Source of the DNA: Amoebophrya sp. A120
Taxonomy: Eukaryota; Protista; Dinoflagellata
DNA length: 64,000 nt
Reading direction: 5' to 3'
Assembly: GCA_905178155.1 (NCBI GenBank)
Contig: CAJINV010000003.1
Location: forward strand, 6,691,612-6,755,611
This document shows, piece by piece, positions 1-62,327 of this stretch (position 1 is its first letter; every line of letters begins with the position of its first letter). The notes below the pieces were generated by a model. That model saw only the letters and a list, made by a program, of their open reading frames with translations. It was not told the DNA's origin and ran no database searches. The position numbers were made by a program, and so were the translations under genes.

Positions 1-3000
1 CTTCCACGACTGCCACTTTGTGGCGGTCGTTCGCTTCCCACATTTCGCAGCATTGGACAACAGCGCGCAGTGTTTTCGGTCTCCTGCCCCTGTCTCGTAC
101 AAAATTAGCATAAACGAGTCGCAACCTTTCGTGACAGCGCACAGGTACCGACATTCGGCCACCGTGTACTCTCGCCGGTTGTCTTGGTAGAACCTCGAAG
201 CGGACCCGTCCGCAGTATCGTAAGGAAAAATCCCCCCTCCCCATATCGCGACGAAGTTCCTGACGGTGGATTTCCGTACACAAATGCGCGCTGTCCTGCA
301 ATAAGGCATCGCAGCCAGATCCTCAGCCTAGGGAGGGGCGTTCGGGATCGGGTCTAGTTGTTTAGCATTACAAACAGCTGCCCCCTAGGCCCAACAGCAT
401 GCCAAATCGCTTCCATAATGGCGCGGAAGCCTCTGCGCTTGTCCTCTTGCAGGACAGACATGGATTGTGGTCTCAAATCAGCAACACAAATTTTCGGAAA
501 CATACCGCTTCGATATGGGGAGGGCGGATTTTTCCTCTCAATACGCAGGGCAACTGCCGTGCGTCGTGAGAATTATTCCCGGGCCGCCATTCTTCGGACA
601 TATCGAAGAAAAAAACCCCATCACAATCACAAAATTCAAATTTTCAAAATTTTGCAGGAGCTGAACAAAAAATTATTTTGATTTTCAGGTAAGAAAATAC
701 TTTTCAATTCTCGAATGCGAATGTATTTATTTTTGTGTTAGCTATTTGGTTATGTCAAAAATGGCGGCTTGAATAAGCTAGTTAAGAAAGAGTTCTGAAG
801 ACAAACGATCAGCTTCCAGCAGACGAAGCTTGGTAGATGGGGTTGTCGCCCTCTGGCCCCAGGTGGGGCCAGAGGGCGACAACCCACACTACCACTGTTC
901 GTCTGCTGGAAGCTGAGCGATTGTCTTCAGAAATCTCTCTTCTTAACTAGCTAGCTTACCGCCAATAGCCAATATCATAAGTCATCTGCTGCAAAACTCA
1001 ACATTCAAAACCAGATACAACAGGTTCGGGAGTGCCGCGAAAGTCCAACGAAGTTTTAATTTTGATGGTCAAAAATTTTGAAAATTTGAATTTTGTGATT
1101 GTGATGGTGTTTTTTTCTTCGATAGGACAGGAATCCGTGTCAATCGGCGGGACCGCGGAGCTGTCGAGGCAATAGGCGCTGTTCTTCTCGAGGGAGTAGT
1201 ATTTCGTTGTCTTTAGCTTCTTCGGCTTTGGCTGGTCCGGACCAGGTGTGATATCCTCGCCCCGAGAAAAGCCAGCCTTTGTAAATTTACAGCCTCCATT
1301 ATGCAAGAAAAAAACTATGTGAGTGTAAATCTGTGATGGGAAACACACAACACAATCACACCTGTCATGCTGGTCAGCCATCAACTCCTGTTTTCGTATG
1401 TCTTTTCACGTACAGGCTGCGCATGACAGGTTTTCTTTGTCATGTAGAGCAATTTTGTCATGCTGTCTCTCCAAGACACCTACACTCACGCAGCTTTTTT
1501 CTTGGATATCCATCGTTCGCGCAAAAGCCGGTAGCTGACGGGGAGTCGTTGCATCTCCTGAGCAAAAACGTCCCCACACTAGAGTTCTTGTCATGCAAAT
1601 CTACACGCCAAAAAAGTTTCTCATGCGGAGCCCCATGAGAAGCATTCTCTATTCGTGTTTAGGGATTTTTGATGCTAGAATCAGCATGACAATCTAGGTC
1701 TGTGATGCTGCTTAACTAGCTAAAACAGAAGCACACTACGACGGCAAGCCTGTCATGCGAAACCACTTAAAGCTGGTTGATTTGTCTAGCAGATTTCCCA
1801 GCTTGACTCTGGTCGTGTGGGGACGTTTTTACACAGGATATTGCACATCTCGAAGCCAGCGCATTCCGGGTCCTCGCGACAGCGCGCGTCGCAGACCTTC
1901 AAGTTCCCGTTCGCCGTGGGTAGCGCCAAGCTCGTTTTCTCATCGAAGTTCAGCGGGATTCCACTGAACTCCGCGGGACACACGTCGTACCCGACGGCGC
2001 TGGCCCCCGGATGCGCGTGCACGCCCAGCGCGACCGAACGGGATGCCAGACGGCAACTGCGCATCTCGTACCCTGTCACGGCGTCCGCGTCCTGTGCGTT
2101 GGTGGAGCACCCTTCTCGAACCAGGTCACACGTACGCGGGAACGCGGTTGTGAGGAAAAACGCGGAGCATTCCTTTTCCTGCGAACACAGGTAGCGGCAC
2201 TCGCTCGGCGTGTAGGGGCGCTGTTCGCCGGAATACCGCAGTAGCAGCAGGTCGGCCTCGTACGATACGCCAGACGGGGGTACACAGGAACCGTAAAACG
2301 CGGGAGCGCAGGAAACCGAGTCCACCTTCGGCACCTCCGTCCGCTCCAGGCAGGTTTCCTGGTTCCTTGCCAAGGTGTAGTACGCCAAGCTCCCGGCCCC
2401 GCTGGTCGGCCCGCTGGTCGGTCCGGTCCTCGCGCACGCCCGCTCGGTTTTGCGGAAGAAGGAACACTTTGCCCCTTTGCCCTCACTGGTCGCACCTTCG
2501 TAGACGTACACGTGGGCGCCGCAGATTGTAAGGGGGTCGTCCCCAAAGGTGTATGACGTCCCTTTGGAGGTGCGGTCCAATTGGGCTAGCACGTACACCC
2601 GCTGCACCGGCTGCTTCGCCAAGAGGGTGGCGCTGCCCGCGTCCAGGCTGACCACCGTGCCGCCTTCGCTGCCCGGTAGCACGCGCCCGAGCTGAATGTA
2701 GTCCGTGCCCGCCACCATGGTGCCGCCGGTGAGCAGGCCGTACAGCTCCCCCGCGATGGCGGCGTAGTTGCTCGATTGATCTTCGTCCACTGTGATCGGC
2801 GGATCCAGCCACACGGTCGCGTAGTCCAGGCGTTCCTTCAGCGAGGGGTCCGACACATCCCGGTTGAACAGGTGCAGGTGGGACATGTGCCGCCGAATGG
2901 AATTCTTGAACCCGACCCGCCACCAGTTGAGACCCGTCTCCGGAGTGCTGTCGGTAGCGCCGGTCCCCGCCGTGAAAGCGCACGTGTCTCCCCAGGGGGA

Positions 3001-6000
3001 GCTGCCACGTTCGTACCCGAGCGGGTTCGTCGCCACTTTGTCCGTATAGCTGCCATCCATGCTCACCTGCTCCGCCGTCAGGTCTGCCTGTGCCACCCGT
3101 GTTGGCGCACCCACCAAGGTAAATCCCATGCAGTCGGCGATGGAGCGGCACTCCGCATCGCACGACTGCACGGACTGGCCCGCATTGGCCGACTCGGAAA
3201 TCTGTAGCGGGTGGGACAGCGCGGCGGCGCGGTAGTAAACCGCGGCCGCCGCCGCCTGATCCGAAACAAAATACGCCCCGCAGCCGCCGCGCCAAGCCGC
3301 CGCGCACACCGGGTCGGTAAGGTCGCGCGGAACACGGTCTCGCCGCTCTGGCTGCTCAGCCCCCGCCTCATTCGCCGGCTGCGGAAGCTGGTCCAAGAAG
3401 GGAATCAGCACGCAAATGTTATCCTGTGTAAAAACGTCTCCTGTCATGCAAATGTTGCGCAATGACAGGAACATTTCATCTCCATGAGGGGCATTTTCAA
3501 TCGAGTTTTGGCCTTTGTAATTCTGTAAACAGGATGAGCAACTGGCTTTCTCGTGCGGCTTCCCTTGCTAACTGTAACTACCACTACACTGCAGATGGAA
3601 TCTTGTCATGCACAACTCCCAACACGCCCTCGCGGAGATTTGTGTTGCAGATTTACCGACTTGACCAAGGGGTCATGGGAAGGCTTTTGCTCAAGATAAG
3701 TGTGGTAGTCGTCCGCGTGGCTGAGGTAGCTTGGCCGAAACCAGTCGCGGATCTGGGCCACATGGTTCAGCCTTTGGCACTCGGGCGGGTCGTACTGATT
3801 TATCTCGTTGGTGCTTTTTTCCAACCGGCAGGACGCGCCCAGTCGCCCGTTTTCACTGTTGCACTTAGTGCACCACCCAGGGACTGTTTCACTTACTGCA
3901 CCACTGCAGGGGAAGTGACTCTCCTGCGGCCGGGGACCACAGCCCGTGCACAAAGGCTTCTCGACCGGACCGGCCGAGCTGGCAGACGGCTCGGCGGTTG
4001 CAGTGCTGCTGCTGCTGGTGTGCGAAGCGTGGAGGATCTTCGGCAGACCTGCTCGGTCGGTATCGTGGAAAGGCATTCCGTGCCCCGGGAGGGCGGTCAG
4101 CTGGCGCGGATCGGGCATTAGCCGGATCGAGACCGTGTGGAGCTCACCAGCGGTGATAGTGGCCCCAGGGAGCAGCGCAGGATCCCAGATTTGCAGCGTT
4201 TGGTTAAAAACCTGTCCCGGTATGTCGTGCCACGCATCTCCCGGCTTCCAGCCGGCCCCGCCTCGCAGCGTGAAATAATCCAACTCGACAATGTACTCCT
4301 TGCCTTCCTCCTCGCACTGTAGCACCAACTCGAACGATGTCTTGGCTTCGCACTTGTCGGCGTTCAGGTAGCTGATACCGCATGTTTCCTCCGACCCCCA
4401 CTTCTCTGCCACGAACGTCATCTCGAAAGACTCCAGCACTTCCTCCGGACTGACTTCCACTCCCACAAAGAGCGACGTCGCGTTGCACTTCCGCTGGTCC
4501 GCCAGAGAGCTGGTCGGCGTGGTGCCCGGCTCCGTTTCCCCGCCGCAACCGAGATGGCACACCCAGTGGTTGAACTCGTAGCGGTTGTCCGAGGCTCAGC
4601 CGTGGCAAACCCAGTATTGCCCCCCGAATGCGGGCGTGAGCCCCTCGCAGGGGCGGGCGTCCGCGTCCACGCCACCCCGGGCAAAGTCGCCGGACCGGAT
4701 CGTTTTATCGTTCACTTTCATCTGCAGGAACACATCGGCGTCCGGAGAGAACAGGTTGGCGCCCGTGACGAAGTCAAAGGCGTGCTCGTGGGACGCACGG
4801 AAGTCGGTGGCTACCGTGCCGCCCAGGCTCGGAAAATGAGGAAAAAAGAAGGAGCGCGCCAGGTCCGCGTGGATCTCCAGGGAATGCTGCACGCGTGCAC
4901 CAGGCGTGGTGCCCCGTTCCTCCTCTTCGCAAATCTGGCCTCGCTTGACGCAGTGGCAGTAGAAGCTGAGTCCGGACCCGTCGGTGACGGGCAGAATGCC
5001 GTACGTCAGCACCGCCCCGCATTCGCGATCCTCGTCCACCTCTGCCCGGCAGCTTTCTGCCGTGTTGGCAGTCGCAGCGAGCGCCTTAACCACGGTCCCG
5101 ACCGTGCCACCGCAGGCGTAATTCTGCTTCCCGCTTCCGATGGGGTACTTGCGAAACCAGCGGGGCGAAGACAGCGTCTTGGCCGCGGCCATCGTGCGAA
5201 TGCCGATTTCGCGCGCATACAGGATGTCCGCGCCGGTGGTCCGCGCGGCTCTCGGCGGGAGCAGGTACGAGTAGGCGCCCGGGACAAGCACGTCGCTTGC
5301 TGTTTCCGTCGTAGTTCCTGCCCCGCCGCTTGAAGTAGAAGACGCACTGGTCGCGGTCGTCGTGTAGTTCCGGGACTGCACGAGCCAGGAGGGCGCCACG
5401 TAGTGGGTGGCGTAGTTCAGCAATGGCTTGACGCGTTCGCGGCCTGTGTAGGGGCTCCGCATCAGACTGGCGCGGTCCCGTGTGGCGTCCTGGTCTTCGA
5501 ACGTCATCTGGGTCCGTACGTAGATCCACGCACCCGCGAGCATGATATTTTTCGCGTGTCCGCGATGGCCCACGCTGAAGCCGACAATCCACTGCTCCAC
5601 ATTGTGCCACCGTCCGGAAGCCGGAATTTCGCCCGTATTCCCGCCATACTCGTCGCCGTACGGCCACGCGGCAAGAAAGTGGTCGCCTCTCGTGAAAGGC
5701 ACGCGGTCGCGGTGCAATAATGTGAAGAGCGCGATGCTGAGATGATTTTGCCGACTCCAGTACGACCCTGCGTCCTCGGCGCGGTTGAACAAAACAATGG
5801 CTGCAACGTAACGCGGAATGTTGTCGGGAAACACCACTTTCCACCAGCCCATTTCACTCGCTGCCGTAACCGTATGAACCGGAATGTGTTGGTACCGGAT
5901 CCACTGCATGCCCAATCCGTCTGCATTAGTCTTCGTCAAGTGGTAGTCGTGTCGCCGCGGGCTGTAGTCCCCGTACTGGCGGTTCAGGGGCCCCTCAAAA

Positions 6001-9000
6001 GCGACCTCGTGGTAAGGGTCAAGCGCTCCGGTACCCCCTGGGTAGACGTCCGCGCCCCGCCCGCTCGCCGTCAGCATCTTGCTTTGCCACGGGTCCAACA
6101 TCTCCCCGGGATGGGGCGACAGGGGCTCGGCGCGCGCCAGAAAGAGGTGGAACCCGCACACCGTCAGGGCCTGGTCGCCGAATCCACTGGCGCCGTCGTT
6201 GACGATTTTGATGCGGCGGAACCAGCGGTATGCATTGCAAGAAAATTATCGTACTAGTATAAATCGCAATACAAATTGCCTCAGCATTAATAGAAATGGA
6301 ATTTGCAATGCTGTTTTACGTTTAGGAAGAACATTTGTCACGACGCATAGTTGCAATTACTACGAGCAGTACGATACTTTTGCACAGGATAAGCGGCGCA
6401 CGGGGACGTAGGTCCCGAACGGGGATACGTACAGCGGGAGCCGGAAGGCCGCCGTCACCTCGTCGTCGAAAAAGACAGCAGCCTGGGCGAGGGACTGACC
6501 CTGTATGCCCTCGCGACTGTAGATGACAAAGCCGTCCACCGGCCGCGCAGTGGAGTGGGTGGACCGCCCCATGTCCGCATTGATGCTGACCCCGGGCTTA
6601 TCGAAAGGAAAAATCTCCCCTCCCCATATCAAATAAAACGCAATTTCTGAGGCTGGATTATTTGTGTACACAGAGCAGCTTTGTATTGCAGGAAGGCATT
6701 GCGGCCAGATCCCCGCGCTAGGTAGGGGCGTATTGGTCTAGTTGTTCACCATGGCAAACCGCTCCCCTTTAGGCCCAACAGCATGACAAATCGCTTCCAC
6801 AATGGGGCGGAAGCTTCTGCCCTGGTCTTCTTGCAAGACAAATGTGATTTGTGAACTCAAATCAGCAACACAAATTTTCGGAAGCATACCTTTTCACTAT
6901 GGGGAGGGGGAGTTTTTCCTTTTAATAGGGCTCCTGGAATTCCGCCTGCCAGAACGCGGTACCGCGAACGGCCGGCACGTCCGTTTGGCTGCACTGCCTA
7001 TGAAAGTGCACAACTACCCCTCCCCCTCGTTTGTCATGCAAGATCCCAAATCCAGCTGCTGCCTTGTAGCACTGTTTGCACCATGCTGACAAACTCTGGA
7101 AGCCCAAACAGTACTACATGAGGCGCATAAATTTCAAATTGTCAACATGCATAGGCTCCATGTGTGCTGGTGTCTGTATTACTGCTCATGCCATACGAAT
7201 GGGGGGGAGGGGGAGTTGTGCACTGTCATACTGGGACGCGAGGGACGCGAAGGCAGAGGAGTCGTAGTAGGCGCGCGCCACCAGCGACGTGTCCGCGGCA
7301 CCGGTGCCGGGGGCGTGGCTCGCCTTCAAAGTGCCGGTGTCATACGAGGAGACTCGGGGCGACTCGTTTGGCCGCTTCCCGCCGTCAAAGAGCAGCCCCG
7401 GAAGCGCCGCGTTGGGCTTCAGGACCATGACGCGGTCCCAGGGAATCCGCCTATGAAAGCCTCAGAATGGAAATTCTCAAAGTGGAATATAATTTGATGT
7501 AATGCATGATGAAATGCGGCACCAAAAAGACTGCATTCAAGAGAAGGCAATGGAGTCCGACTAATATTGTAGTGCTTCTACGGATTCAGAATTATTGGGC
7601 TGCTGACTTATTAGCACGATAGAGGGTCACGTCCCCTTTGCCTAACTAGCATGACAGACGCGTTTTGAGTGCCCCCGGGGAAATTTGTCATGCGCCGACT
7701 AGAAATGGCACTTCAACTGGAATGATCGTTTTTTTTGCAATTGCAAATTTACTATATTTTCACCTTGAGGATTTCCAACCTGATGCTTTCATACCGCCAC
7801 CAGTGCTGGGGCAGGGGAATGCTGAGCTGGCGTTCCTCCACCTCCGCCAGGGAAAGTTTCTCGCTAGCCCCGGTACTAGTCGCGAGCTCGTCCTCGGCAG
7901 AAAGCATGACGCCACTGGTCCGGAACTCGCTCTCGCGCAGGACACTCTTTCGGCACTCCGCCGTCATCTCCATCGCGTCGACGTCGCTCTGTGCCGACTT
8001 TGTTATGGAGGCATCCGCGGCCCATCCCAACAACAGGCAGCCATTGGTTGGGTCCCGCACGAAACCGTTGCAGGTGGGGTAATGCGCGCAGGTTAGCATG
8101 CACTCCTCGAAGCTGGAAAATTTCGACGCGCCACGACTGCCATAGGAAAAGGAGCCGTCCAGATCAGTGCCCCCGACGAGTGTCGTGGCTTCGTCCCGAA
8201 CGCAGGTGGTTGGGATGGGGATCTGGGTCATCACGTGCGCCAAGCGGAAACTCGCTTTCCACGGGTCCAGAAACTTCAGGAGCTGGCTACGGCACTATCA
8301 AATGCAAAAGTGTCTGGGTCTGGAATGTTGCCGGGGTTGTCATGCATATTTTGCATGACCCAGGATGTCTGTAATGCGTGGCCTAGCATCAGAGATTTTT
8401 AGAGGGCTTCCTGATGCCTATTCCGCATGACAAATGCCCGCCCCGCGTAGCAAAAGCTAGACTTTTCTTGCTGATCATGCAATACAGATTTTTTTAGAGT
8501 CCAAACTTAGCATCACAAGCTCCAACCTTCCAGACCCAGACACTTTTGCATTTGATAGGCAACCAGAAGACAGCACTGTCACGTCGTAGTCGTAGTTCGT
8601 CTGCCACTTCACATGGGTCATGTCACCAGTTTCAAAGCTATTCTTCTCTAGGAGGCAGTTACTGCTTTGAGGTGGAAAACCGCGCTTGTGAAAATTGAAG
8701 CCCGTGCACTCTTCCACCGCTGCACAGCTCAGGAGACAGTCCTGGTAGGTGCGCGCCTGCGGCACCGTCTCGAAGCCGGCGTCATTATAAAACCGGTTTA
8801 GGTACCGTACGCAATCCGCCGGCGGCGCGTGGAACTTTCGCGGCACCATCCGGCGGCGGCACTTCGGGGTATAGAGGGAAAACGCGTGATCTTAGGGAGT
8901 GCCGCTACTTACCCCTAAGAAAAGTCGCAGCCTGTCTTCATGCCGAGATGCTATTTCCTCCTGATTTGTCATGCAAAGAGCACACAAAAAACCACCCCAT

Positions 9001-11468
9001 GTCCATTCCATGCGGTCTGCAGTGGTTTTTGGTGGGCGTTTTGCATCACAACAAGAGGTTTCTAGGCGAATCTGCATGAAAGGCCGCGGCCTTTTTTCTT
9101 AGGACTAGCAGCAGCCGGGAAGGTCACTCATTTCCTTCTCCCCTCCATACGGGGTCATCACCAGCGAATCGGTGGTCAGGTCCGTCACGGCCGCGCTCGC
9201 GGGCATGTCCTGTTTGAGGCGGCAGTTTTTTTCGTTCACCCCGGCCCCCTATCAATCGCAAATATGTCTCCTGGTCTGGAGGAAGATTCTGAGACTTGTC
9301 ACGCACGTTTTGCGTGAGCCATGATGTCTGTGATACATGCCGTAGCATCCCAGATTTTTTAAGAGGTTCTTGAAGATGATGCCAATTCCGCATGACAAAT
9401 CCCCTCTCCGTGTAAGTAGCAATATTACAACATTCCCGCGTTTGCTGCTCATCCAATTCAAAATTTTTTCCAAATCCAAATGCAGCATCACAGGTTGCAT
9501 TCTTCCAGACCACCCAGACATATTTCCACTTGATACCCCCAGCCGGAACGTGATCCCGGCACAGCCTTCGAGTTTGGCACAGATGCGGACGCAGCCTTCA
9601 AAGTGCACCGCGTCGGTCACGAAGTCCGCCGCTTGGGCGGACCCGCCGAGCGCGTTGCCCCCGAGCGGAAGCGGGTAGTCCAGGAACTTGAGCCGTTTGC
9701 AGTAATACTTTGCGTCCCCCTCCGCGGAAGGAGCGCCGTAGGCCGGGACTGGAACCTCGAAGATGTTCGCCCGGGACAGCATCGCGGTGGTGCGGTTGGC
9801 GGCCGCCTGGTAGGCCGCCGGGGAGGCGAATTGGGGGACGCCGCGGGTAACGAACAGGTGGAAGCCCGCCACGCGGAGGTAACTGTCTCGGTTTCCGTCC
9901 TTGTCGGGGCCGAGCGCGGACACCAGGCGAATGCTGAACACCCACCGGTGCACATTGACCCAGGAGGTGCGCGCACTCTCACTGCCCCCCGACAAGGGGC
10001 TGGGGACGTAACTGTCCCAGTCGTATACGTTGCTCCGAAAGTAGGACTCGTCATCGTTGTACACCAAAAGCGCTCCCGCGAGGGTTGAAGTGCCCGACTG
10101 CTGCAGAAAAAACCCCTCCACGGGGCGCGGAACACCGTCCGCGAACCGCACCTCCCACCAGGCCGATTGCGTTAGCGGGGGTATGTACCGGGTCTTCCGA
10201 ATGAGCAAGGTGTAGAAGGGCACGTCGGTCATGGTGGACACCCCGTAATATCCGATGGGTGCCGCTCCCTCCGACCCGGCGAGATAGTCGCCGTACGGGT
10301 TGACAGATAGACCATCGCTTGCGGTCGAGCTATGGTAGTTTTCCGGCCCCTGACTAACGAGCAACCCCGCCGCATTGTCGGGGTCTCCATTTGCGTCCAG
10401 CAGAGGGAAGGCGGTCGGCGGGATCTTGGCGAGGGGGGAAGCTTGGTAGAGCCAAAGCCCACAGATTATCGCCCGGCCCTGCACCGTCACTTTCGTTGCC
10501 CTTGCGCCCACGGAGACCCAAAAGCCCGAGACTGTCCCCAAGATCGCGGGAAGGGCCGCAATATGAGCCGAGCCGGCGTCGTCCAAATAAATAGATGCGG
10601 CGGCAAAGCTTACGCTGCGCTCGCTGTTCCGGTCTAGCCCAAAGATGACCAGACCCGCAATTTCGCGCGGAACCTGATCCGCAAACTCGACGGAATATCG
10701 ATGCGGGCCTCCGTCGGAGGAATCAGCATTCCAACAGTAGAACGGCTCGTCAGGAAGGCCGCGATTCTTCGTGTCGCCCACAGGGCGGTTTAGCGGGTTC
10801 GTGGCTGCATATGTTGCCTGGTTGTTGTACACACTGGACGCGGTCACGGAGAGGCGCGCAGGCTCCACGAAAGTGCCGCTAGATGTGGCATGGTGCGTTG
10901 ATTCGTAGAGCCAGAAGCCGCAAAAGTTCAAACCAGTGGCTTCCAGTTTGATTTTCCAGACCTGTTTGTCGAGCTGGACGAAGGTGCCGTCGTAGCGTAC
11001 GATGCTCGGTGTCTTCGCTGGCTCTGGCGAAGGACTGTCGTTCAGGTAGATCAGCGCGTTTTGAATCTGATTCCCGTCGTAAATGTTGTTCCGCCTGAAC
11101 ACTGAAAATCCCGTGATGTGCCGGGGTTTTTTGTCCTGAAATTCGACCGCCCACCAGTAGGCGAACCAGTGGTAGCACCATCCGGTGTACGAGACTATGT
11201 CCGTCGCGGTATTGTCTCCCTCTGGGCGCGTTAGCGGCAGCGAATGGTGGCACTTGCTCTCGTCGCCCCCACCACACACCGCCCAGGTCCATTCCGGGTA
11301 CGGGGCGGAGCTCGTCTGCAACAGGGTCGGCGGTACAAACAACCCGTTTGTTCCAGCAGGCCTACCCGCCTCTGTTCCCACGGGGACCAGGGGCAACTGC
11401 TGCACCAGGAGGAGCAGCAGGCTGCTCAGTGTAGGCCACGCGACGTCGCGGACGAAGCAGTCCTTCAT
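1..11468 (-). CDS. Giant secreted/surface protein (>2,600 aa, 3' end outside the window) with several PAN/Apple-like and discoidin/fucolectin (F5/8C)-like domains; 13 exons in the window
   Basis: Likely start MKDCFVRDVAWPTLSSLLLLLVQQL (signal-peptide-like, ATG 11468). Repeated Cys patterns such as CxxxCxxxxxCxGF...CxL (ECRYLCSQEKECSAF, CVRICAKLEGCAGI, CMLTCAHYPTCNGF) and WWxVxF...LFNR motifs. Removing 12 introners plus one DR each (3,581 nt) leaves 7,887 nt = 2,629 codons in frame to position 1. One in-frame TGA at 4596-4598. Confidence 0.85.
216..543. mobile_element. Introner (non-canonical intron), family A
   Basis: TIR AGGAAAAATCCCCCCTCCCCATATCG / CGATATGGGGAGGGCGGATTTTTCCT; TAT...ATA ends; DR CGCAG at 211-215 and 544-548; excision joins GSCPA-DGSASRF in frame. 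Confidence 0.92.
601..1124. mobile_element. Introner with ~50-bp TIR and nested internal foldback
   Basis: TIR TATCGAAGAAAAAAACCCCATCACAATCACAAAATTCAAATTTTCAAAATTTT mirrored at ~1072-1124; DR GGACA (596-600, 1125-1129); joins TDSCP-KNGGPG. Confidence 0.92.
1300..1508. mobile_element. Introner
   Basis: TIR TATGCAAGAAAAAAACTATGTGAGTGTA / TACACTCACGCAGCTTTTTTCTTGGATA; DR TCCAT (1295-1299, 1509-1513); joins CANDG-GCKFTK. Confidence 0.9.
1554..1840. mobile_element. Introner (left terminus TCT rather than TAT)
   Basis: TIR TCTCCTGAGCAAAAACGTCCCCACAC / GTGTGGGGACGTTTTTACACAGGATA; DR TTGCA (1549-1553, 1841-1845); joins GFEMCN-DSPSATG. Confidence 0.88.
3420..3698. mobile_element. Introner
   Basis: TIR TATCCTGTGTAAAAACGTCTCC / GGAAGGCTTTTGCTCAAGATA; imperfect DR AATGT/AGTGT; joins DDYH(T/I)-CVLIPF in frame. 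Confidence 0.85.
6229..6391. mobile_element. Introner (short, 163 bp)
   Basis: TIR TATGCATTGCAAGAAAATTATCGTACT / AGTACGATACTTTTGCACAGGATA; DR AGCGG; joins PVRR-WFRRIK. Confidence 0.88.
6599..6927. mobile_element. Introner, family A (paralog of 216-543)
   Basis: Same TIR and shared internal sequence (TAGGCCCAACAGCATG.CAAATCGCTTCCA, CTCAAATCAGCAACACAAATTTTCGGAA); DR GGGCT; joins EFQEP-GVSINA. Confidence 0.92.
6999..7230. mobile_element. Introner
   Basis: TIR TATGAAAGTGCACAACTACCCCTCCCCC / GGGGGAGGGGGAGTTGTGCACTGTCATA; imperfect DR CTGCC/CTGGG; joins SLASQ-CSQTDV. Confidence 0.88.
7452..7793. mobile_element. Introner
   Basis: TIR TATGAAAGCCTCAGAATGGAAATTCTCAAAGTG / CACCTTGAGGATTTCCAACCTGATGCTTTCATA; DR CCGCC; joins HWWR-IPWDRV. 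Confidence 0.9.
8296..8557. mobile_element. Introner, family B (TCTGGGTCTGGAA TIR)
   Basis: Perfect ~30-bp TIR TATCAAATGCAAAAGTGTCTGGGTCTGGAA; DR GGCAC/GGCAA; joins SSGC-RSQLLK; closely similar full-length copy at 48266-48527. Confidence 0.92.
8870..9149. mobile_element. Introner, family C
   Basis: TATAGAGGGAAA...CCCCTCCATA ends; DR CGGGG; joins LVMTP-KCRRRM; related to 30072-30354. Confidence 0.87.
9250..9535. mobile_element. Introner, family B-related
   Basis: TIR TATCAATCGCAAATATGTCT..TGGTCTGGA / TCCAGACCA..CAGACATATTTCCACTTGATA; DR CCCCC; joins FRLG-AGVNEKNCRL. Confidence 0.9.
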
Positions 11469-12292
11469 CTTGAAGGCCTTTTTACTTCTTTTGCAGCAGA
11501 AAAAATTGTAGTGCTGCGCGCCGCCTCTACTGCGCGGCCGCCAGAACCACGAGCACAAGCGGTGGGCTGCGGCACAACATCCTGCAGCTGCAGCTAGACC
11601 CAGAATTTTTATCCATGGCAGAAACGAGGAAAGGTACCAATTCATCAAAAACGGCAATGTCTCGGCCGGACGAGCAGGAGAAGATGAGCCAGAAATCAAA
11701 AATACTGGCTTGCTCCTGGTGGTTCTGCTACAGCGAGAAGCGGGAAGATCTTGATGTTGCCTGGGCGGGTCGGAACAACATGTCATGATTTCTACTACCT
11801 ATCGGGATCTATAAATATATGCGCGTGTAGACAGCACGCACGGGACCCGCTGAAAAGTCTCGCTTCACCGTGGGACGAGGTAGATACCACATGTTAAAAC
11901 GAGGGGAGTTGCACTACCTTTTGTGCGTTGATCTTGATCTTAACTATCATGCGAGTAGATTATCTGATCGATTTTGCGGAGCGTTGCTAGTTTTGCTTCT
12001 GATATCGCAGACATGATTAGATTACTTCCTGTTCCTGTTCCTTTATTTTCATAGGTCCGCGTCGCAGGAACGCGGAACGTGCGGAATACGAAAGAACATT
12101 CGCGGACAGCGTGAGGATGTTCAGCGAAATACTGCGCAGACGTCACGCTGTCATGGACAGGCTTCGCATTCATCCTTAAATCTCATCCGATGCTCCACGA
12201 CGTTTCCTGAGCATTTTGCTTTTGATTTCTGAAATATGAGATAACAACTTCCATGGAAGTACTTTTGATTGTTGTTGCTAGCGCGTACATTT

Positions 12293-15800: not shown

Positions 15801-18706
15801 TTATTCGTTTTCATATTGAGGCTTGAAGTTGCGTCCTTTGAGGAAGTACGGCACCGTCCTATCGCGATGGCGCAGTGGCGTGCGCAACTGGGGGTGGCCG
15901 AAGACCAGATGCCAAAATTTCATCATATTTTGGCACAGGGTTCGGGCCCGCAGATCCCACTGCATCGGGCGCGGGAAGGGAGGAATGGTGTACCCTTGGT
16001 GCGTAGTGAAGAGCAGGCGAGGGTAATCCCAGGAAATAAAAACTGGTTCACTGTGACTGTTTTCCACACGACCATGACAAATAGTTTGCCGCAGATAAAA
16101 TAAATGGCAGATCTGCGCGATTTAACACATGAGGAAGGATACCTTCCCACTGCGCGTGTGCTTCTACTTGTTCAGGGACTAAAAAAACGCCTGAATGAAC
16201 AAGAACAAAGTGGCTCGCTTGTTGCATCTCTTTTTTTACTAGCAAGGCCAGCACTTCTTCGGCGGCGTAGTGGCATTGACTTTGTGTGCGTGAGAGGCAC
16301 CAGCTCACAATGACACAAAAGCAAGATCTTGGATAGGCGTCGCGGTAGAAAGACTCTGGGCGGAGCCGGATGCGGTGCTTGGACACGATGAAGTGCGAGC
16401 AGCAGTACGATCTTGGGGCCACCTGGGGGCGGACGTTGGTCTTGAAGAGCCGCTGGAACAGGAACGTGGTTGCCGGGTGTTCGAAGGGGGACGTGTCGCG
16501 GTTGTGCGCCAGGTTCTGGTACCCCAGGTTGGGAATGTTTCCCACGAGCGCGGCGTGCAGCGCGGCCTCCAGGATGTTGTCGCTCCCGAGGGACTTCCTA
16601 CGCAAGTACCGGCTCGGGAGCTCCTCCGGGCTGGTGACGCCCTTCGCCAGCTGCTTCTCGTAGTCCGGATTCGGTCGCACGTAGGGGTCGTTTTCCACCA
16701 CCGCGGGGTGCACGCTGGGATGCGGGTCGTACTGCGTGTCCACGTTGATCATGATGTGCTCATCCGCGTCCGGGTGCACGAACATCGTGTAGTCAGCCAG
16801 GCTGGTGTACCGCTTCTCCAGAAATCCAAAGTACCCGCTGCACTCGTCCCCCCGGACGTCCTCGTCCTCGATTTGTAGGAACCGCAGCTCCTTGGTGTGG
16901 TTGAACACCTGGTGAGGCACCTGCCGCAGCTGGGGTGTGTCGCCACACTTCAAAATGACCGTGACCGTCAGGTGGATCTTGACGAACCGCGTGAAATATG
17001 CATTGCAATTATACGCCTGGGTCTGGAATCGCATGCGAATTGTGGATCGTGAAAAAATCTGTGTTGCCTGGTCATCAAAAGATGCTTACTTTTGACCAGG
17101 TTGGCAGGGAGTTTCTCATACAGGATAGACATAATAGCGATCTCGCACGACCATCTGTCATGCTAGGCGCTGCATTCTAGATCTAGACCTCATCCGTCAT
17201 GGAAAACCTGCATGAAAGATCTTGCGTTCTTCCAGACCCAGACGCATTTGCATTGGATATGAAGGCCTCCTTGTACCAGTCCAAGATGCGCGCGGCCGGC
17301 TCCTTGCAGTAGGGCAACACCAGCTCCACGGACTTTTTCTGGCTCTCGTACTGAGCCAGAAACTTCGCGTGTTTGCTGTTGCCCGGCAGAACGGACTGGA
17401 GGTGCTCCCATCCGATGTCTAGCGGCCACTTGCGAAACTCCCGCTCCCCCATTGCACCAGATTTTACCTGATTTTTTTGTAAAGGAATTCCATTTTTTAC
17501 CATTTATTACTATACTTATTCATATTTCCACCTATGATTGAGATTGACAATGCGTGTTCGAGTACGTGTTTCTTCTCTATTAAGTGGTCCAAGTCCACCT
17601 TTCTAGTTTGTCATCTGAACAATTCCACGCCGAGGCGCAACAACCTGTCGTGGAGTGACATCGGTCGAAACATCAGGTCGGTCTGGGGACTTAGCTTTCG
17701 TTGAAAACTACTTTACACAAGAAGCCAAGAAGGAGAATTAAACGCATCACATCCTCGGCCACATATTATCAGGATGAAGAAGAGCAGACAGCACCATTTC
17801 TTGCAGCTGGGCGGTGTACTGCAGGAGCCCAAAGAAGGCGCTATGCAGCGGCTTCATGGCCAAGTCCTCTTCGAGCTTGATCAGAATGGTGACCAGAACC
17901 GCGGGGGGACACAGGTTTTTGTGTGTCACCCAGTTGGCCACGGCCTTGGCGTGGGCCTGAAACATCCGCGGATGCGTTTCCTGGAATTTGAAGTAGATCC
18001 ACGCGTCGCGGCGGTAGTTGCGAAAAAAAGTGTTTTCGCACCCGAACAGCGTGTTCCGGTCCGAAACGTTTACCCGTGGCTGGAAGCAGCACACGTCGTA
18101 GGAGTAAATCTCGTCCCAGCAGGCCTTATTGCCGCGGACCCCGTCCGCACCGGCCCCGTAGTCCAGGCAGCAATCTTCGTACGCGAAGGCCCCGTCCTCG
18201 AAACAAAGCGGATTCCCCAGCGTGTCGCCATCGGTGTGAGCTGCCGCAGCCTGCGCGTCTGCATCCACTGCACCAAAAACCCTAGGACTGCTCTTTGTCG
18301 TTGGGAGCATTTTTTCCGTCTTCTGGTACACGTCAACATGATCCTGACTTCGAGTTGACGATGATGAAGCTGCTTCGTCCAACATCGGGGTTTCGGCCGG
18401 TGTGCTGGGTGATGATGTTTTCGACGTGGAATGAACAGAGGTGGACGATCCTCTATTTCTTGCTTTACTGGCATCTTGAACACTTCTTCTCGCTGCGGTT
18501 GTTCTTTTGCCAGGAGCGATGTTCGCTTCAACAGCTTTGTTGACATCACTTGTCGTTCCGTTGGTCGTTTCATCATCCTCTTCCGCGAAAAACTCGCGGC
18601 GCTCCTGCTCTTCCCCGTTAAAATCATCGTCCCACGTAGTCGACTGCACGAGGACCCACAACAGGAATCCGACCTGCAGACCAAATTGCCACCGACATCC
18701 TCCCAT
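15801..18706 (-). CDS. Secreted DUF3431-family (glycosyltransferase-like) protein, 4 exons
   Basis: Signal peptide MGGCRWQFGLQVGFLLWVLV; GNPLCF..CC/GNKACW..CC motif; DUF3431-like YTMFVHPDADEH, YCCSHFIVSKHRIRLRPESFY, FWHLVFG. GT-AG intron 17468-17794, introner 16997-17259, last intron (~16024-16335) imprecise. Confidence 0.78.
16997..17259. mobile_element. Introner, family B-related
   Basis: TATGCATTGCAA..CTGGGTCTGGAA / TTCCAGACCCAGACGCATTTGCATTGGATA; DR TGAAA/TGAAG; joins KEAF-TRFVKI. Confidence 0.88.
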
Positions 18707-26180: not shown

Positions 26181-26226
26181 TATCGGTAAACAAGAGCTGC
26201 TTGAATAGGTAATGGTAATGGTAAAC
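26181..26226. repeat. 46-bp direct repeat, copy 1
   Basis: TATCGGTAAACAAGAGCTGCTTGAATAGGTAATGGTAATGGTAAAC. Confidence 0.95.
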
Positions 26227-38641: not shown

Positions 38642-41600
38642 TCATAGGTCGTCCGACTTCGAAGTTCCGTCTCCTGCAGTGCTGTCATCTCCTTTCAGTT
38701 CCTGAAGACTCCTGTCTACATCGTGTTGCGACCAATGCGCTGTGAGAACGGAGGAAAGCGTTGCGGTTCCTAACGCGAAGGAGACCACCGCGATGTTCAT
38801 CCACACAATGCTGAAAGCTCGCAACCACCGGTGGTCAATGTACAGCCCGCCGAAGCCGGTGGTGCTGCTCGTAACCACCGCCCAATTTACGGCCTCGTAA
38901 AGGTTCCACTCAAGCACGTAGCCGTAAATAGCACCGCCCACCAGCAGGGGCGCCACGCAAAGCACAAATGCCTTCATTAATTTGCGAACCCTTTCCGCCT
39001 CCGCGTGGTCGTCGAGCTCTTTCTGGAGCTCCGCACGCCCTGCCGCGTTCATCTTCATCCGGGCGAGCTGCATCGATTTCCGTGCAACAGTGACGCGGTC
39101 GATCCTGAATTTACGTTTTTGATGGCATAGTTGTTCGTATAGATACTGTTCTATTTTACACACGCTTGTTCAGCACAGAATTTAATACGACATTCAAGCG
39201 GAGCCGGAGCAGGTGGTCTCCAGGTACTTCTCTACTACCTGTTCCTGCTGCGCGGTGGTCTAGCGAAAGAAGCACGAAAAGCTCTTTAGCCTGTCTCAAT
39301 AAAGAGAACAAGCATGATGTAAATGCCAGTTCGTCTTTTACGTGATGTAGTTTGTTCTGCAAAAAAGAAAAACGAAAGCCCTCGCTCGTCCACGTTTACG
39401 TACATTACCGTCTCTCGACTTGCGTGAAAGACGGATGTGGATACCAAAATGAGACTCGCATATTAGCGAAGGGAGGGGAAGTCCGGATACCTATCAAAAA
39501 CAGACCCAACCAGGTCCAGCGCTGTAGTCAGGGAGAAAGTTCGCAAGGGTAACGGGTTCGAACCGCCAGTGCCAAACGACCCCTCCTCCCATCGCAAAGC
39601 GAGACCGATCACTGTTCGTTGCCCCGAGGACAGAACGGTCAAACAGCATCTATCCCGCATAAGTAGCGGGCAACAAAAAAAAGGAAAATATTCCGACATA
39701 CGGAATCCAAAAACTCCCGCACAGCGGACCAAGCCAGATCATCCGACGAGCGAAGGGCAGAACTTTCAACTGGAGGAAGCCACATTCTCCGACAAGCGGA
39801 GGCCAAATAAAATTTCCGACAAACGGAGGCCAAATCATCCGCAAAGCGGGCCAAACGATCATCCGCAAAGCGGGCCAAACGATCATCCGCAAAGCGGGAC
39901 TAATCATCCGCAAAGCGGGCCAAATCATCCGCAAAGCGGGCCAAACGAGACTAATCATCCGCAAAGCGGGCCAAATCATCCGCAAAGCGGGCCAAATCAT
40001 CCGCAAAGCGGGCCAAATCATCCGCAAAGCGGGCCAAATCATCCGCAAAGCGGGCCAAATCATCCGCAAAGCGGGCCAAATCATCCGCAAAGCGGGCCAA
40101 ATCATCCGCAAAGCGGGCCAAATCATCCGCAAAGCGGGCCAAATCATCCGCAAAGCGGGCCAAATCATCCGCAAAGCGGGCCAAATCATCCGCAAAGCGG
40201 GCCAAATCATCCGCAAAGCGGGCCAAATCATCCGCAAAGCGGGCCAAATCATCCGCAAAGCGGGCCAAATCATCCGCAAAGCGGGCCAAACGAGACTAAT
40301 CATCCGCAAAGCGGGCCAAATCATCCGCAAAGCGGGCCAAACGAGACTAATCATCCGCAAAGCGGGCCAAATCATCCGCAAAGCGGGCCAAACGAGACTA
40401 ATCATCCGCAAAGCGGGCCAAATCATCCGCAAAGCGGGCCAAACGAGACTAATCATCCGCAAAGCGGGCCAAATCATCCGCAAAGCGGGCCAAACGAGAC
40501 TAATCATCCGCAAAGCGGGCCAAACGAGACTTACTACCAACGGCAGGGGCGTTACTCCCTGGGAACAAGAGAAGGCGAAACAAATACCACCCCGAAAGTC
40601 GGTGGGTTGTCCTGACTAATCTTCTCAAGTCCTGGCTACCGTAAACGAAAGGGCTGAGGGCGGACACGGGCATAAAATACCGCCCGACCATCCTCAGCCT
40701 AGGCTCACAGGCTCGCTAGCCTGCTGCTGCCCGGGCATACATTTTATGACACTAAAGTAGCAACAGAGAGATCAACATTGGATGATCGTCGTTGGATTCG
40801 TTCCTCTCCCGACACGGAGGCGAGCAAGCACCTAACAAGACGCGGTGGGCTAACCCCCTTACGAAAGAAGACGAGAAGGCTTCTGTCCAGCAAAGCGGCG
40901 CGAAGCCTCATGATCTCTCCGCTGTAAAATTCGCCTTCCTCACAAAACAGGGCGGGAGGGCGGGAAAACGACACAAAAACATCCGTGTCATCGCTGCGCT
41001 GATCTGACTTCGGTTTTGGTTACCGTGACACTAGTACTACTCGATGCATAAAATACAGACCGACCATCCTAGGCCTGGACTCACAGGCTCGCCAGACCTC
41101 TGCTGCCCGGTCATACATTTAATACCGTCTCTCGACTTGGTCCTGGACGACACGCGTGAAGACGGATGTGGATACCAAAATGAGACCCACGATTATGTAG
41201 ACCGCGTTCAGAAGCCGGAGGTAGTCCGCTATTGGGATGACGTCTCCGTAGCCTATGGTGGTCAGCACCTGAGTGGCGTAGTACGCTCCCTGGATGATGC
41301 AGTCCACTAATGGGGGCTTTTCTGTCATGCTGGGAAAATATTTGTCGTCCCAGGCCGACGCGTCGGTGAACACGTAAGCCGCAATCCCGACCAGGTAATA
41401 GCCGGGCAGCAGGTACCAAAACAAAAAGTTCCAGTCCCGCACGCGGCGCTTCGTCTCTAGAACGGTGGCTTTCCATTTTCGCACTGCCGGCAAGACCCGG
41501 CGTTGGACCGCGGCGGCCTCAGGGGTTTGCTCGTCCGAAAAGGAGACGGAAAGACGCCGATCAAGTACCGAAGTAGGACGATGGTCGTCGGGTTTTCTCG

Positions 41601-48165: not shown

Positions 48166-49484
48166 CTAGAGGCAAGCTGTGATTCCAGGGTCCTTCTCGA
48201 ACAGGTTCTTGACCAGCAATTCGTACTCGATCTCCCCGGTCTTGTCTTTGTCCGCGACACTGTGCTATCAAATGTAAAAATGTCTGGGTCTGGAAGAATG
48301 CAAGACTTGTCATGCATATTTCTCATGACCCATGATGCCTGTAATGCTTGAACTAGCATCGCAGACTTTTAGAGGGCTTCCTGATGCACCTTCCGCATGA
48401 GAAATGGCCTGTCTGTGTAGCAAAAACTGTACCCATTTTGCTGGTCATGCAATACAATTTTTTTTAGAGTCCAAAAACAGCATGACAAGTTCCAATCTTC
48501 CAGACCCAGACATTTTTACATTTGATATGTGCGCATAGTCCATGAAATCGTCCACGGCGTCGAGGTATCAAATGTAAAAATGTCTGGGTCTGGAAGAGTG
48601 CATGTTTGTCATGCTTGTCTGGCATGACTCTCAAATCTGTCATGCACGTTACCCAAGAGCGCCATTTTTCTGTCATGCAGAAACGCAGTTTGTCATGCAG
48701 AATAGGCAACACCTAGAAGCTCAGAAACTTGTCATGCTGAGCCAGCACTTGTGGCCTCCTCATGATACGCCACCCAGCATCACAAGTTTCCAGACCCAGA
48801 CATTTTTGCATGTGATACGAGGTCGAGAACGTCGCCGATGCATCCGAGAGCGTACCGCATGACCGCTGCCTTCAGAAACCCCGAACCGTCCCGGTCGAAT
48901 TGGCGAAAAGACTCGATCAGGATCTCTGGTTTCGCGGGGTCCTTTGGAGTTTTTAGCATGCAGGTGGTGCCTAAGGTGAAGATGAGAAGATGTTGTTCAC
49001 TAAGTGTTCCAAAACGACCTCATTGCGCTGCGACAGATCATACTACTGCAACACGCGGAACCGATTCTAAAACTTCGGGTGCGGCGCCTCTGGCTTTTTT
49101 TGGACAGAAGGAACCTCCAAGAACCTAAGCTTATCAGAAATCTTTTGAATTTCATATACAACAGAAACAAATCAACAACTCCAAACCTTAACCTATAGGT
49201 CGTACCTTCGCAAAGTCGCTGTCCATAATACGCAGAAATGTGTCGAGGTCAAACGTCTCGGCTTTTTTGAATTCGTTGATGACGATTTCAAGTTCTTTGT
49301 TCGTTGGGTTTTGGTTCACAACGCGAAACATGGCCCCGAAGTCCTGCCAGGAACACTTCCCCTCCTCCATCGTGTTCCCCTCTTCGTCCTCATACGTCGC
49401 ATACATCTCGAAAACGCCCGTGTAGCTCTCCAGCTGCATCTCCGTGAGAGCATACTTCGGCATCTCATCGAGAAGGTCCTCCAT
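48166..49484 (-). CDS. Calmodulin/myosin-light-chain-like EF-hand protein (apparent 1-nt frameshift near 48900)
   Basis: FGAMFRVVNQNPTNKEL, FDRDGSGFL...MRYALGCIGDVL, ADKDKTGEIEYE; GT-AG intron 48942-49205 and two introners. Confidence 0.8.
48266..48527. mobile_element. Introner, family B
   Basis: Perfect TIR TATCAAATGTAAAAATGTCTGGGTCTGGAAGA; DR TGTGC; same length (262 bp) and internal sequence as 8296-8557; joins DYAH-SVADKD. Confidence 0.93.
48566..48817. mobile_element. Introner, family B TIR with a different interior
   Basis: TIR TATCAAATGTAAAAATGTCTGGGTCTGGAA; DR CGAGG; joins VLDL-DAVDDF. Confidence 0.92.
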
Positions 49485-59383: not shown

Positions 59384-62327
59384 TCACGCAACAGATGTCC
59401 GTGTGAAGGTCGTTTGAGAATGCCGCGAGCATAGCGTCCAATCGAAAGTTATTGCGTGTTCCTCAGCAATGCTGAGCGACGAAACCGACTTCTTCTCTTT
59501 CATCCGCTTGATCGCCTCCGCCGACAAGCTCTCCTCTCTGAGAGGTACCAGGCAGCGCCGGTTTTTAGCAGCCGGATAGGGATCTGGCAGACACAGCGAG
59601 ATCTTTCTGGCAGATGTGGTTTTTTTCCGCCCAGTTGACGTGGACGCGGAGTCGTGCTGTTGTAGCTTCTTATCCGAGGACTCCGTTTCCGTTGCTGCGG
59701 CGACGTCCGGAGAAGATGCAGGTGGCAAGTTCTTTCCATTGACACGTGTGGCGGCACCAGAAAGGCCAGGATCCTGGGGACGACTGACCTGCATGCTAGA
59801 CATGCTATCATGCGATGGCACCGAAAGTGAGCTTGCGTGGTGGGCCGGCACAAGATGGTCCCACTTCTGCAGGATCTCTGCACAAGACCAACGGGCGCTC
59901 GGCTCAAAGCGCAGGCAGTTCTGCAGGAGTGCCACTACATGCAACATCCCTGCCTGGATGGGCTGGCAAATTTCGGGCATGAGCGGGAGAAAGAGGCCAC
60001 GGCGCGCGGTCTCATCTTCCGCGCCTGGGCGGGGTTCTTCCTTAGGTTGAATGGCGTTAGTGTTTTCACACCCCGGTGCGGAGCAGCGACACTATCGAGG
60101 TGAAAAGCATCCCCACAACCCCAGAGCCAACGAATGTCTGTCATACACAGAAGTTTCGAGTACCTCGCAAACCCAATACTACGTCCCCCTACACTCCGAC
60201 TCCATTGTATATGCACTCGGAGGGGGCAGCTGCCCATGATACTGTTGTCTTGGAGAATCACACAAGAACAAAGCTGAAATCTACAGGCCGTTGTACAGCG
60301 CCCCTTGATTCTATGGCGCCGTATACTTATACTATCTCAACGCTCAACTATCTCAAAATTTTTCAACCCAATATTAACTAGGTAGTTCAAGTAGCTAGTT
60401 TATTCAGCTAACACATGATGCTTATGTAGCTAGATTTTTGGCGTGACAGATTAAGTTAGATCAATGAAAATCGTCCGGTCCTGCTCCGCCGATTTTTTCT
60501 AGTCCTGTTGCTTCCCTCATGACCCCTTCCGGACACCCCTTCCGCGAACCCCTGAAAGGTGCTCAAAAAGCTGCATTTTTTCAGTGCGCCCTAGCATCGG
60601 CGGAAGCTTATTATTGCCCCCCTCAGCTACCCCCCTCGCCGACCCCCCTTCCGGGGGGGCCCCTCACAGACGGGGTCGAAAGGGGTTCCGAAAATTGACA
60701 GGGCGGCGGAGCGGGACCAGACGATTTCTTCTAATATAGCTCATTTGTCATGCAAAACAGTTATCTACTTGCATATAATTCACTATCTACATAAACTACC
60801 TACTTTAGATAGCTATATAGAGTTGAGGTAAAAAAATTTGAGATAGTTCGACGTTGAGATAGTATACGGCGCCATAGATTCATCTACAGAAAATAAAGCG
60901 TTTCTGTTTTTTTCCTCTCAGTTTCATGCAAGACGAGCAGATGCTGATGCTACTTGGAAACTTGATATACACAAATCCTTTTTGATTCCAGGGCTGCGGG
61001 GAACTTTTCAATTTCGTAGAAACCTGGGCTTGTTGAGATGAGGGTACTGCACGACGAGACGGTTGTCACTGATTGCAAAGAGTGCCCGGGAAGCCCCCCA
61101 CTTTTGCAGCTCCTCATAGGGGCTCACAAAGTACAGCATGGTGTACAAAATGACGCCCAACGCGTACACATCCACGGTCGGGCGCATTCTGGAAGATGCA
61201 TCACATGATCCTGCCGCGCCCAGGTAGAAGGCCTCCGGGGGCATGTAGCGCAGCGTGCCCGCCCAGTCAGTGCGCCGGCTGTTGTTGTGCTTCCCACCGC
61301 CCTCTGTGCAGTGCCCGGCCAGGCCGAAGTCGGCGAGCTTAATGCGTCCACCCACCACGAGAAAGTTCTGCGGCTTTAGATCGCAGTGCACGATCTTCAA
61401 AGCATGAACGAAACGCGTCGCGCGGAGCATCTCCTGGAAATAGATCGCGATTTCGTGCAGGGAAAAACCCCGAGAGGGGCGCGCACGCACACGGTCCATC
61501 ACTTCTTGAAAATCGCAGTCGGCCAACTCCATCACAATGTGAGCGGTGCGAGGACCATTTATCGTGGGTGGTCCCTTCATCGGAAAACCGCCGGCAGATT
61601 TCACAAGCTTTTGATTCTCGCTGGAGGTGAACTGGCGAATGATGTAGCGGTTCGCTTCCTCGCCCCAAATCCAGCGCTGCTTCTCTCCGTCGGGCAAGAC
61701 GATCTCGCCCACCTGGTCCTCGCTGCGTCCCGTCTGCTGGAACTTGCACTTCTGCAGGCTCTGGAGCAGCTCGGCCTCCTTCCGGAACCTGCACAGTTCG
61801 CCATCCGAGGTCGCATGAATGATCTTGATCGCGTACCTTTTGCCCCCCTTTCCCTGCAGCTCGTACACCTGGCCCGATCCCCCTTCGCCCAAACGAATAC
61901 CAAGCCGGGCAAATTTTCTTGCGGCCGCCTGCTCCTGTTCGAAACAACTCCGGCCCAGGGGAAACAACTCCTGCGCATGCACTGCATGGGCAATAACATT
62001 TGCCAACTCTGCGGAATCCAAAACCGGGTCAGACGTCGTATCGTCGTCGGGATCTACCGCGAGGTCCTCTCCGGACTTCCCACGAGATTTCTGCATTTGC
62101 TTCTCGCTCCTACTCCTAATGGCTCACAGAGGAAAAGGTGAAGCGGCGAGTTGGATGCTGGCATCATACTGCCTGGTTTCTACGGCCTTCGACACTTGTT
62201 TCATAGAAAGCTGCGGCTTGTAGGTTTTCCGCTCTGACAAGCACCACCAATACTGGCCAGCATCCGTCGCTCGTACTACCCATCCTTGCAAGACCGGTGT
62301 GAAATCGAGGCGCAAATCGGGCGTCAT
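59384..62327 (-). CDS. Ser/Thr protein kinase, Mps1/TTK-like, possibly with an N-terminal WW-like segment
   Basis: LGEGGSGQVY, YAIKII, IVHCDLKPQNFL, KLADFGLA, GTLRYMPPEA, DVYALGVILY; subdomain XI (LQNCLRFEPSARWSCAEIL) in ORF 59384-59980; splicing between ~60090 and 61023 unresolved; in-frame TGA at 62124. Confidence 0.82.
60312..60876. mobile_element. Introner-type element with long (~180 bp) degenerate TIRs
   Basis: TATGGCGCCGTATACT..TATCTCAACG mirrored at ~60830-60876; inner arm AAATCGTCCGGTCCTGCTCCGCCG mirrored at ~60704-60727; DR GATTC (60307-60311, 60877-60881). Confidence 0.9.

Follow-up and report, generated by a model that had tools for sequence, protein, structure and literature searches.

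Why do introners of many families in the dinoflagellate Amoebophrya sp. A120 carry the same short word in their interior? The question is raised by a stretch of 64,000 nucleotides of contig CAJINV010000003.1 (positions 6,691,612 to 6,755,611; hereafter the window), in which one 8-mer recurs inside such elements. According to the accessible text of their description (PMC7789003), A120 introners are non-canonical introns of about 240 nt, in many families and without an internal transposase. Their ends are inverted repeats of TAT, seven variable bases and AAA, bordered by direct repeats of 3–5 nt, and about 30,000 introners in Amoebophrya correspond to 17% of the A120 genome. An original prediction for the window took the 8-mer for a shared cis signal, either a DNA-binding site for a transposase or host protein, or an RNA recognition or pairing element. 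Our sequence comparisons support a real, selected motif that is a shared cis signal, and they argue for a site on DNA.

An 8-mer concentrated in the introners of the window

Elements were delimited by TAT..ATA ends, a terminal inverted repeat (TIR) and a 5-bp direct repeat, without use of the motif. This search gave 19 elements; with E8, whose repeat has two mismatches, the set comprises 20 elements and 6,172 bp (Table 1). Four longer or weak candidates were unconvincing and were dropped. The set agrees with the published A120 introners (PMC7789003, accessible text) in its TAT-N7-AAA ends, in its border repeat (5 bp in each of the 10 elements whose repeat is exact, lengths from 8 down to 2 having been tried) and in its repetition in families (13 of the 20 have BLAST relatives in the related loci described below, with up to 96% identity). 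In DNA run X1, contig depth was far higher over the elements than elsewhere. The family-weighted logo read T9 A9 T9 at the start, positions 1–3 being partly imposed by the finder, and A7 A8 A7 A7 at positions 11–14. TAT-N7-AAA(A) is thus common to all TIRs, which had been thought not to resemble each other.

The 8-mer has 28 exact copies in the window, 19 on the plus and 9 on the minus strand, at exactly the coordinates first listed (26 in elements and two elsewhere). Dinucleotide shuffles of the window had a mean of 2.32 copies (maximum 7), and none of 100 reached 28. The 26 copies lie in 14 of the 20 elements (4.2/kb), whereas the rest of the window, 57.8 kb, has two (0.035/kb); in shuffled elements the mean was 0.40 copies (maximum 3). 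The original prediction had the 14 carriers right and the total too low, at 17. Eleven of the 26 copies sit in five elements of one TIR type (E10, E12, E13, E18 and E19), so that, judged from the window alone, the sharing may reflect ancestry.

De-replication in related contigs

Metagenome contigs were scanned with a TIR pattern free of the motif. This yielded 160 loci from one assembly (12 of 64 scanned parts), which merged to 597 kb with 426 elements. When run on 242 kb of shuffled DNA, the element finder called three elements falsely; in the loci it joined separate elements at least once. Together with the 20 window elements, the family set comprises 446 elements in 67 families.

The 8-mer was present in 338 of the 426 elements from the loci, at 6.4/kb inside elements, and occurred at 0.17/kb outside masked elements, where about 0.03/kb is expected by chance. 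The outside copies often cluster in decayed intron-like stretches. Three intron-like stretches without a recognizable TIR pair (L017:17140-17560, L033:15686-16102 and L028:3144-3748) had clustered motif sites, in one case with a 31-bp pair, and may be old introners in which the motif persisted.

At the family level, the 8-mer ranked first among all 8-mers, being found in 42 of the 67 families. With one random member per family it was found in 40.4 of 67, against 0.5 of 67 after shuffling. Removal of the bait families left 59 families with 242 elements, in which it still occurred at 5.0/kb. The de-replication proposed with the original prediction therefore left the enrichment standing, and the proposed comparison with DNA outside the elements found the motif rare there, in the window as in the loci.

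The families had been called unrelated, which is overstated. At BLAST E<1e-4, 426 of the 446 element interiors formed one network, and this network fell into 91 components once the motif was masked. In view of this break and of their common ends, the elements look like one old, diverged superfamily whose chief remaining common sequence is the motif. Common ancestry together with selection would then explain why the motif is shared.

The full motif and its conservation

The enriched 8-mer is the core of a longer, degenerate motif of 10–11 bp, GCAT[G/C/T]ACA-R-R (R = A or G), with the full form H-GCAT[G/C/T]ACA-R-R-Y (H = A, C or T; Y = C or T) and a free middle base. A weight matrix for this motif found 2,047 sites in the 446 elements, about 4.6 per element, against 17 in shuffles; in the window, 17 of the 20 elements had such sites inside.

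Rates of change were estimated by parsimony, comparing the seven core bases with other internal columns; the estimate covered 383 of the 446 elements, those of the 13 largest families. On terminal branches the core rate was 0.036, against 0.072 for other internal columns and 0.062 for TIRs; on internal branches it was 0.008 against 0.033. The core/other ratio was therefore 0.50 on terminal and 0.24 on internal branches. In all 13 families the core changed more slowly than other internal columns, which supports the original proposal of a shared cis signal. Matched trinucleotide contexts predicted 1,064 core changes, and 540 were seen. Sister pairs aligned without gaps gave ratios of 0.35–0.43, and ratios were 0.40–0.54 across terminal-branch lengths.

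Spacing and phasing of the sites

The motif had been described as lying at variable internal positions. Its sites are in fact non-random, being phased both to one another and to the element ends. The distance between same-strand sites peaked at 31–32 bp: at 30–33 bp there were 42.4 family-weighted pairs, against 6.4 ± 1.9 in the null (maximum 11.7), and in 31 of the 67 families the majority had a same-strand pair at this spacing. Spacers between paired sites had 34% identity across families, against 27% when shuffled. B-DNA has 10.5 bp per turn, and 31–32 bp make three turns.

Sites reading TGTCATGC inward were found 36–38, 44–47, 67–69 and 75–78 nt from the element end. Their phasing to the ends was about 10.4 bp, with a power at 10–11 bp of 0.354 against 0.115, a value reached in none of 500 nulls. 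The matrix sites of E10 are at 46/78 (a 32-bp pair), 188/219 (a 31-bp pair), 95 and 134. The 134 gaps between elements showed no clear periodicity.

Orientation relative to the host transcript

The host strand was called by a codon model for 341 of the 446 elements; two methods agreed in 151 of 163. The strand bias that the original prediction proposed to look for was absent: relative to the mRNA strand there were 252 exact copies in one orientation and 275 in the other, and 757 and 806 matrix sites. Element families insert in both directions, and even the most one-sided large family does so (29 vs 20). A spliceosomal cis signal, such as a branch point or an Sm site, lies on the sense strand of the pre-mRNA, is present in canonical introns as well and is complementary to an snRNA (small nuclear RNA). 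The counts above do not show such placement, and there were no motif sites in two canonical-looking introns (a small sample) and only the two copies in the 57.8 kb of the window outside elements. A reading as an Sm-site-like AUUUGU, and likenesses to ApiAP2, octamer and TALE motifs, were dropped, for want of strand bias or of a test.

In the TIRs, changes were matched at both ends in 232 of 912 cases, against 145 expected, a count inflated by shared descent. Between opposite internal sites, agreement at the variable base was 0.42, the chance level, and pairing covariation was not seen. The pattern at the ends thus suits a structure formed by pairing, and that of the internal motif suits sequence-specific recognition of double-stranded DNA. 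Of the two options of the original prediction, we favor the DNA-binding site because of the 31–32 bp spacing, the end phasing and the lack of strand bias; the RNA option fares badly on the last point and on the chance-level agreement.

Removal in silico of the elements from the host gene

Twelve elements, E1–E12, interrupt one gene. When each was cut out together with one copy of its target-site duplication (TSD), a 7.9-kb frame with one stop remained. This restoration of the frame across 12 elements is indirect evidence, from sequence, that the introns are removed precisely. The sole stop of the 11.5-kb gene is at 4596-4598; DNA run X1 has a different base at 4596, so the stop may reflect allelic variation or a mistake in the assembly. 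One contig from a run that is possibly RNA stopped aligning at the E13 border. Raw RNA run X9 covered almost only 12001-13200, in both mate orientations, and a second run covered nothing; reads across element junctions were seen in neither. The covered segment falls in an open reading frame (ORF) of 617 aa without a Pfam match. Ciliate-style excision from DNA was rejected: the elements are present in the assembled DNA, and the accessible text of PMC7789003 validates removal in RNA.

A probable binding site for a shared mobilizing complex

We think it somewhat probable, a little better than an even bet, that the motif is a double-stranded DNA binding site of one shared mobilizing complex, that is, of a transposase or of a host cofactor working with one. 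Beside the geometry, we count for a DNA site the presence of the motif in both orientations, the lack of strand bias and the 5-bp duplication at TAT..ATA. Its protein units would sit on the same face of the helix, on sites separated by three turns, with their distance to the termini fixed. The complex would synapse both ends and cut at TAT..ATA. Sequence-specific recognition would sit in the internal sites, not in the TIRs. Positions 4–10 of the TIRs would then be free to drift between families, needing only mutual complementarity, which may serve the RNA hairpin proposed for splicing. One enzyme could in this way move families with differing TIRs.

Several results weigh against this interpretation. 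Seven of the 446 elements had no internal site, among them E2 and E16 of the window. Sites in the opposite orientation showed no end phasing (296 of 500 nulls). Length changes were barely suppressed within pairs (any change, 18% vs 21%), and suppression was weak for changes of two or more (10% vs 15%). All data beyond the window come from one assembly and one TIR as bait. Neither a transposase nor any other protein that binds the sites was found in the window and the 597 kb of loci. The accessible text of Farhat 2021 (PMC7789003) reports putative transposases only in strain A25 and none in A120, and argues against general mobilization by a transposase. Finally, a test of resident copies used 461 copies including defective ones. 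Their terminal core/other ratio was 0.49 (confidence interval, CI, 0.44–0.53), below the value of up to 0.78 expected from transposition only, a rough figure that takes TSD mismatches as a neutral clock. This hints at selection on resident copies.

Selection of that kind is at the heart of an alternative that we consider unlikely: a host DNA-binding protein would occupy the phased sites of every resident copy, mark the copy on the DNA and so recruit the non-canonical splicing machinery during transcription or ease polymerase passage. Selection on the host gene would then preserve the motif in either direction of insertion. The lack of dependence on strand fits a mark on DNA, and the constraint held whatever the length of the terminal branch. 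Copies with one TSD mismatch had a ratio of 0.46, against the rough 0.78 under neutral decay in place, and 49 copies with a mutated TAT or ATA end had 0.59 (CI 0.41–0.84). Motif clusters also persist in decayed introns missed by the finder and the BLAST mask, as the density outside elements shows. In the accessible text of PMC7789003, U1 small nuclear RNA (snRNA) was not found in A120 and the splicing route is given as unknown. However, constraint was weaker on terminal than on internal branches, and terminal branches contain unsampled source history. As orthologous copies for a clean comparison after insertion there were three near-identical duplicate pairs, too few for the purpose. The incremental ratio of defective versus intact copies was 0.77, with a CI (0.37–1.38) that includes neutral decay. 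Insertions in sequence resembling coding sequence and in other sequence were alike (0.46 vs 0.42, n=22 for the latter), and the removal of E2, which lacks the motif, still restores the frame.

The two preceding readings could be combined, rather speculatively: the phased sites would be an "intron here" mark written in the DNA, and one protein, perhaps a domesticated transposase, would bind it in every resident introner, mobilize the elements and also pass their ends on to the non-canonical splicing machinery. We regard this version as unlikely too, and slightly more so.

A role for the motif at the level of the pre-mRNA is improbable in our judgment. There it could be recognized by an RNA-binding protein or a small RNA, or it could form stems inside the intron hairpin, and carrying both orientations would guarantee every element a copy on the sense strand. 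Both orientations were indeed present in 380 of the 446 elements, and in predicted folds 569 of 1,563 sites paired with another site, core bases being 77% paired against 63% of other bases. Yet in 59 elements all sites were on a single strand, insertion in both directions was seen even in the large family that is most one-sided, neither exact copies nor matrix sites showed strand bias, and the variable base agreed only at chance level. Pairing alone would not hold identical letters across families. The two canonical-looking introns lack the motif, and no Rfam match was found in the window.

A neutral relic of one ancestor with tandemly duplicated units, its motif kept by ancestry, low mutability or gene conversion, is very improbable and largely refuted: although all elements have TAT-N7-AAA ends and 426 interiors join one network, that network breaks up on masking, spacers have diverged almost to chance while sites and spacing stay, matched-context rates predict twice the observed changes, and variation among G, C and T is free at the middle base but not at its neighbors.

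The search for the mobilizing protein behind the favored DNA-site reading included a search for an autonomous copy, and none was found in the loci and the window. Four long TIR candidates were seen in the loci (L022, L031, L061 and L029). L022:505-1608 (1,104 bp) had no Pfam match; it has E9-type ends, and its right 800 bp are a GC-rich, internally repetitive insert free of the motif. L031:632-1465 (834 bp) has E10-type ends, a 5-bp TSD, motif sites near both of its ends and an unrelated interior of about 600 bp; a likeness to a Copia reverse transcriptase is conceivable, and Pfam gave no match. In size it resembles the published A120 fam38 (about 810 bp; PMC12130899, accessible text). L061:3862-4492 had no ORF above 85 aa, and at a further stretch, L017:290-840, the finder had misjoined two elements that lie on either side of an exon. 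Matches to the pattern of paired sites and ends in viruses (3) and prokaryotes (15) were put down to chance; none had a matching TSD partner or BLAST similarity. The TIR pattern had no match in viruses.

Comparison with known systems

Tn7 TnsB and CACTA TnpA bind arrays of subterminal sites. Such arrays of transposase sites are also established in piggyBat/piggyBac and, as cited in the accessible text of PMC11707139, in Tol2, Tag1 and Ac. According to that text, they consist of several short sites per end, in both orientations and at set distances from the tip, and are needed in non-autonomous derivatives. The introners share the first three features, with end phasing in one orientation only, and also conservation in transposing lineages, as the low core rate on internal branches indicates. 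Unlike those arrays, one site type here is common to dozens of families with different TIRs, and sites fill the whole element of 150–330 bp, at 31–32 bp spacing, inside introns that are presumably spliced.

The TA..TA ends point to the IS3EU/GingerRoot type (accessible text of PMC10045372 and PMC6839031), which has such termini, TIRs and a short TSD without sequence specificity, as here. That TSD is usually 6 bp, whereas ours is 5 bp; GingerRoot TIRs are 100–150 bp, whereas ours are mostly 15–30 bp; and autonomous copies encode an integrase-like DDE transposase, whereas no integrase-like ORF was found in the window and the 597 kb. Because the usual 6-bp TSD is lacking, we did not assign the elements to this type. 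Among 20 of 58 A120 rows of PMC12130899, fam38 is labelled Ginger, with a 5-bp TSD and TA/TA termini. The word "subterminal" occurs 0 times in the accessible text of the GingerRoot paper.

Nonconventional introns of euglenids (PMC11282704, accessible text) are likewise TIR-paired, TSD-flanked, similar to miniature inverted-repeat transposable elements and removed by an unknown route. They have a conserved CAG/CTG in the terminal stem, and that text mentions no phased internal motif.

For A120, the accessible text of PMC7789003 describes terminal inverted-repeat and direct-repeat motifs only; the internal motif, the spacing rule and the conservation test come from the present work. A text search for the 8-mer, on either strand, gave 0 occurrences in the main text of that paper, and one for the 6-mer cores gave 0 in the text of its supplement. 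In line with the original prediction, the motif is apparently undescribed: our literature search found no description, including in the accessible text of PMC7789003, PMC12130899, PMC11707139, PMC10045372, PMC6839031, PMC11282704 and PMC9860276, with theses outside the search. Subterminal site arrays are known already; one phased site common to dozens of families that form introns while their TIRs drift is apparently new.

Elements and other repeats of the window

The elements are listed in Table 1. The TIRs of E6, E13 and E15 start, right after TA, with a sequence that scores as a degenerate motif site, a hint that terminal and internal sites are of one origin. E2 lacks relatives in the loci, although the host frame is restored when it is cut out; it is possibly a second class of introner. 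Other repeats were also seen. At 39815-40535 a unit of about 21 nt is repeated in tandem (about 30 copies) and is the source of the window's most frequent 8-mers. At 26180-29075 a segment of about 38 nt occurs three times (about 26185, 27365 and 29035) around long inverted repeats at 27.4–28.5 kb; this stretch, free of the motif, is another repeat or mobile element. Over 14180-14740 the contigs of DNA run X1 add up to a high depth, and TAT..ATA ends were not found; this segment is a different repeat.

Table 1. Introners, other elements and isolated copies of the 8-mer in the window
Feature	Coordinates	Strand	Type	Exact 8-mer copies	Remarks
Host gene	1..11470	-	gene		weak PAN-domain match; interrupted by E1-E12
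E1	216..543		introner	0	328 bp; 5-bp TSD; 4 degenerate sites as two 32-bp pairs
E2	601..1124		introner	0	524 bp; long TIR with 86-nt arms; internal 78-nt hairpin; 0 motif sites
E3	1300..1508		introner	1363, 1421, 1456
E4	1554..1840		introner	1589, 1684, 1751	7 matrix sites
E5	3420..3698		introner	3442, 3604
E6	6229..6391		introner	0	2 degenerate sites
E7	6599..6927		introner	6781	family of E1; 4 matrix sites
E8	6999..7230		introner	7032	variable base 37 nt from end
E9	7452..7793		introner	7649, 7686
E10	8296..8557		introner	8338, 8425	6 matrix sites
E11	8870..9149		introner	8967	31-bp pair at 178/209
E12	9250..9535		introner	9390	E10 family
E13	16997..17259		introner	17156	E10 family; opposite orientation in its gene
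E14	30072..30354		introner	30279
E15	31112..31401		TIR element		0 internal sites; one match within TIR
E16	34609..34983		TIR element		0 sites
Isolated copy	37336..37343	-	8-mer	37336	outside elements; chance level
E17	38286..38646		introner	0	2 degenerate sites
Isolated copy	41323..41330	+	8-mer	41323	within ion-channel ORF; chance level
E18	48266..48527		introner	48308, 48480	E10 family; 7 matrix sites
E19	48566..48817		introner	48607, 48638, 48671, 48691, 48730	TIR as E10/E18, interior different; spacings 31, 33, 20, 39
E20	60312..60876		TIR element	60746	565 bp

Implications

Should the site be retained in resident copies for the benefit of the host, DNA binding would be linked to intron definition, a link for which we found no precedent described in the accessible texts. 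If the phased sites are a mark written in the DNA, intron definition would start on double-stranded DNA during transcription, independent of strand and of U1. The phased motif could act as bait for isolating the machine that copies introners, with a half-turn shift as control. One conserved, phased site across families suggests that one machine serves all introners, and this would account for the failure to find a TIR code specific to each family. The motif thus bears on the question of how Amoebophrya introners move and are spliced.

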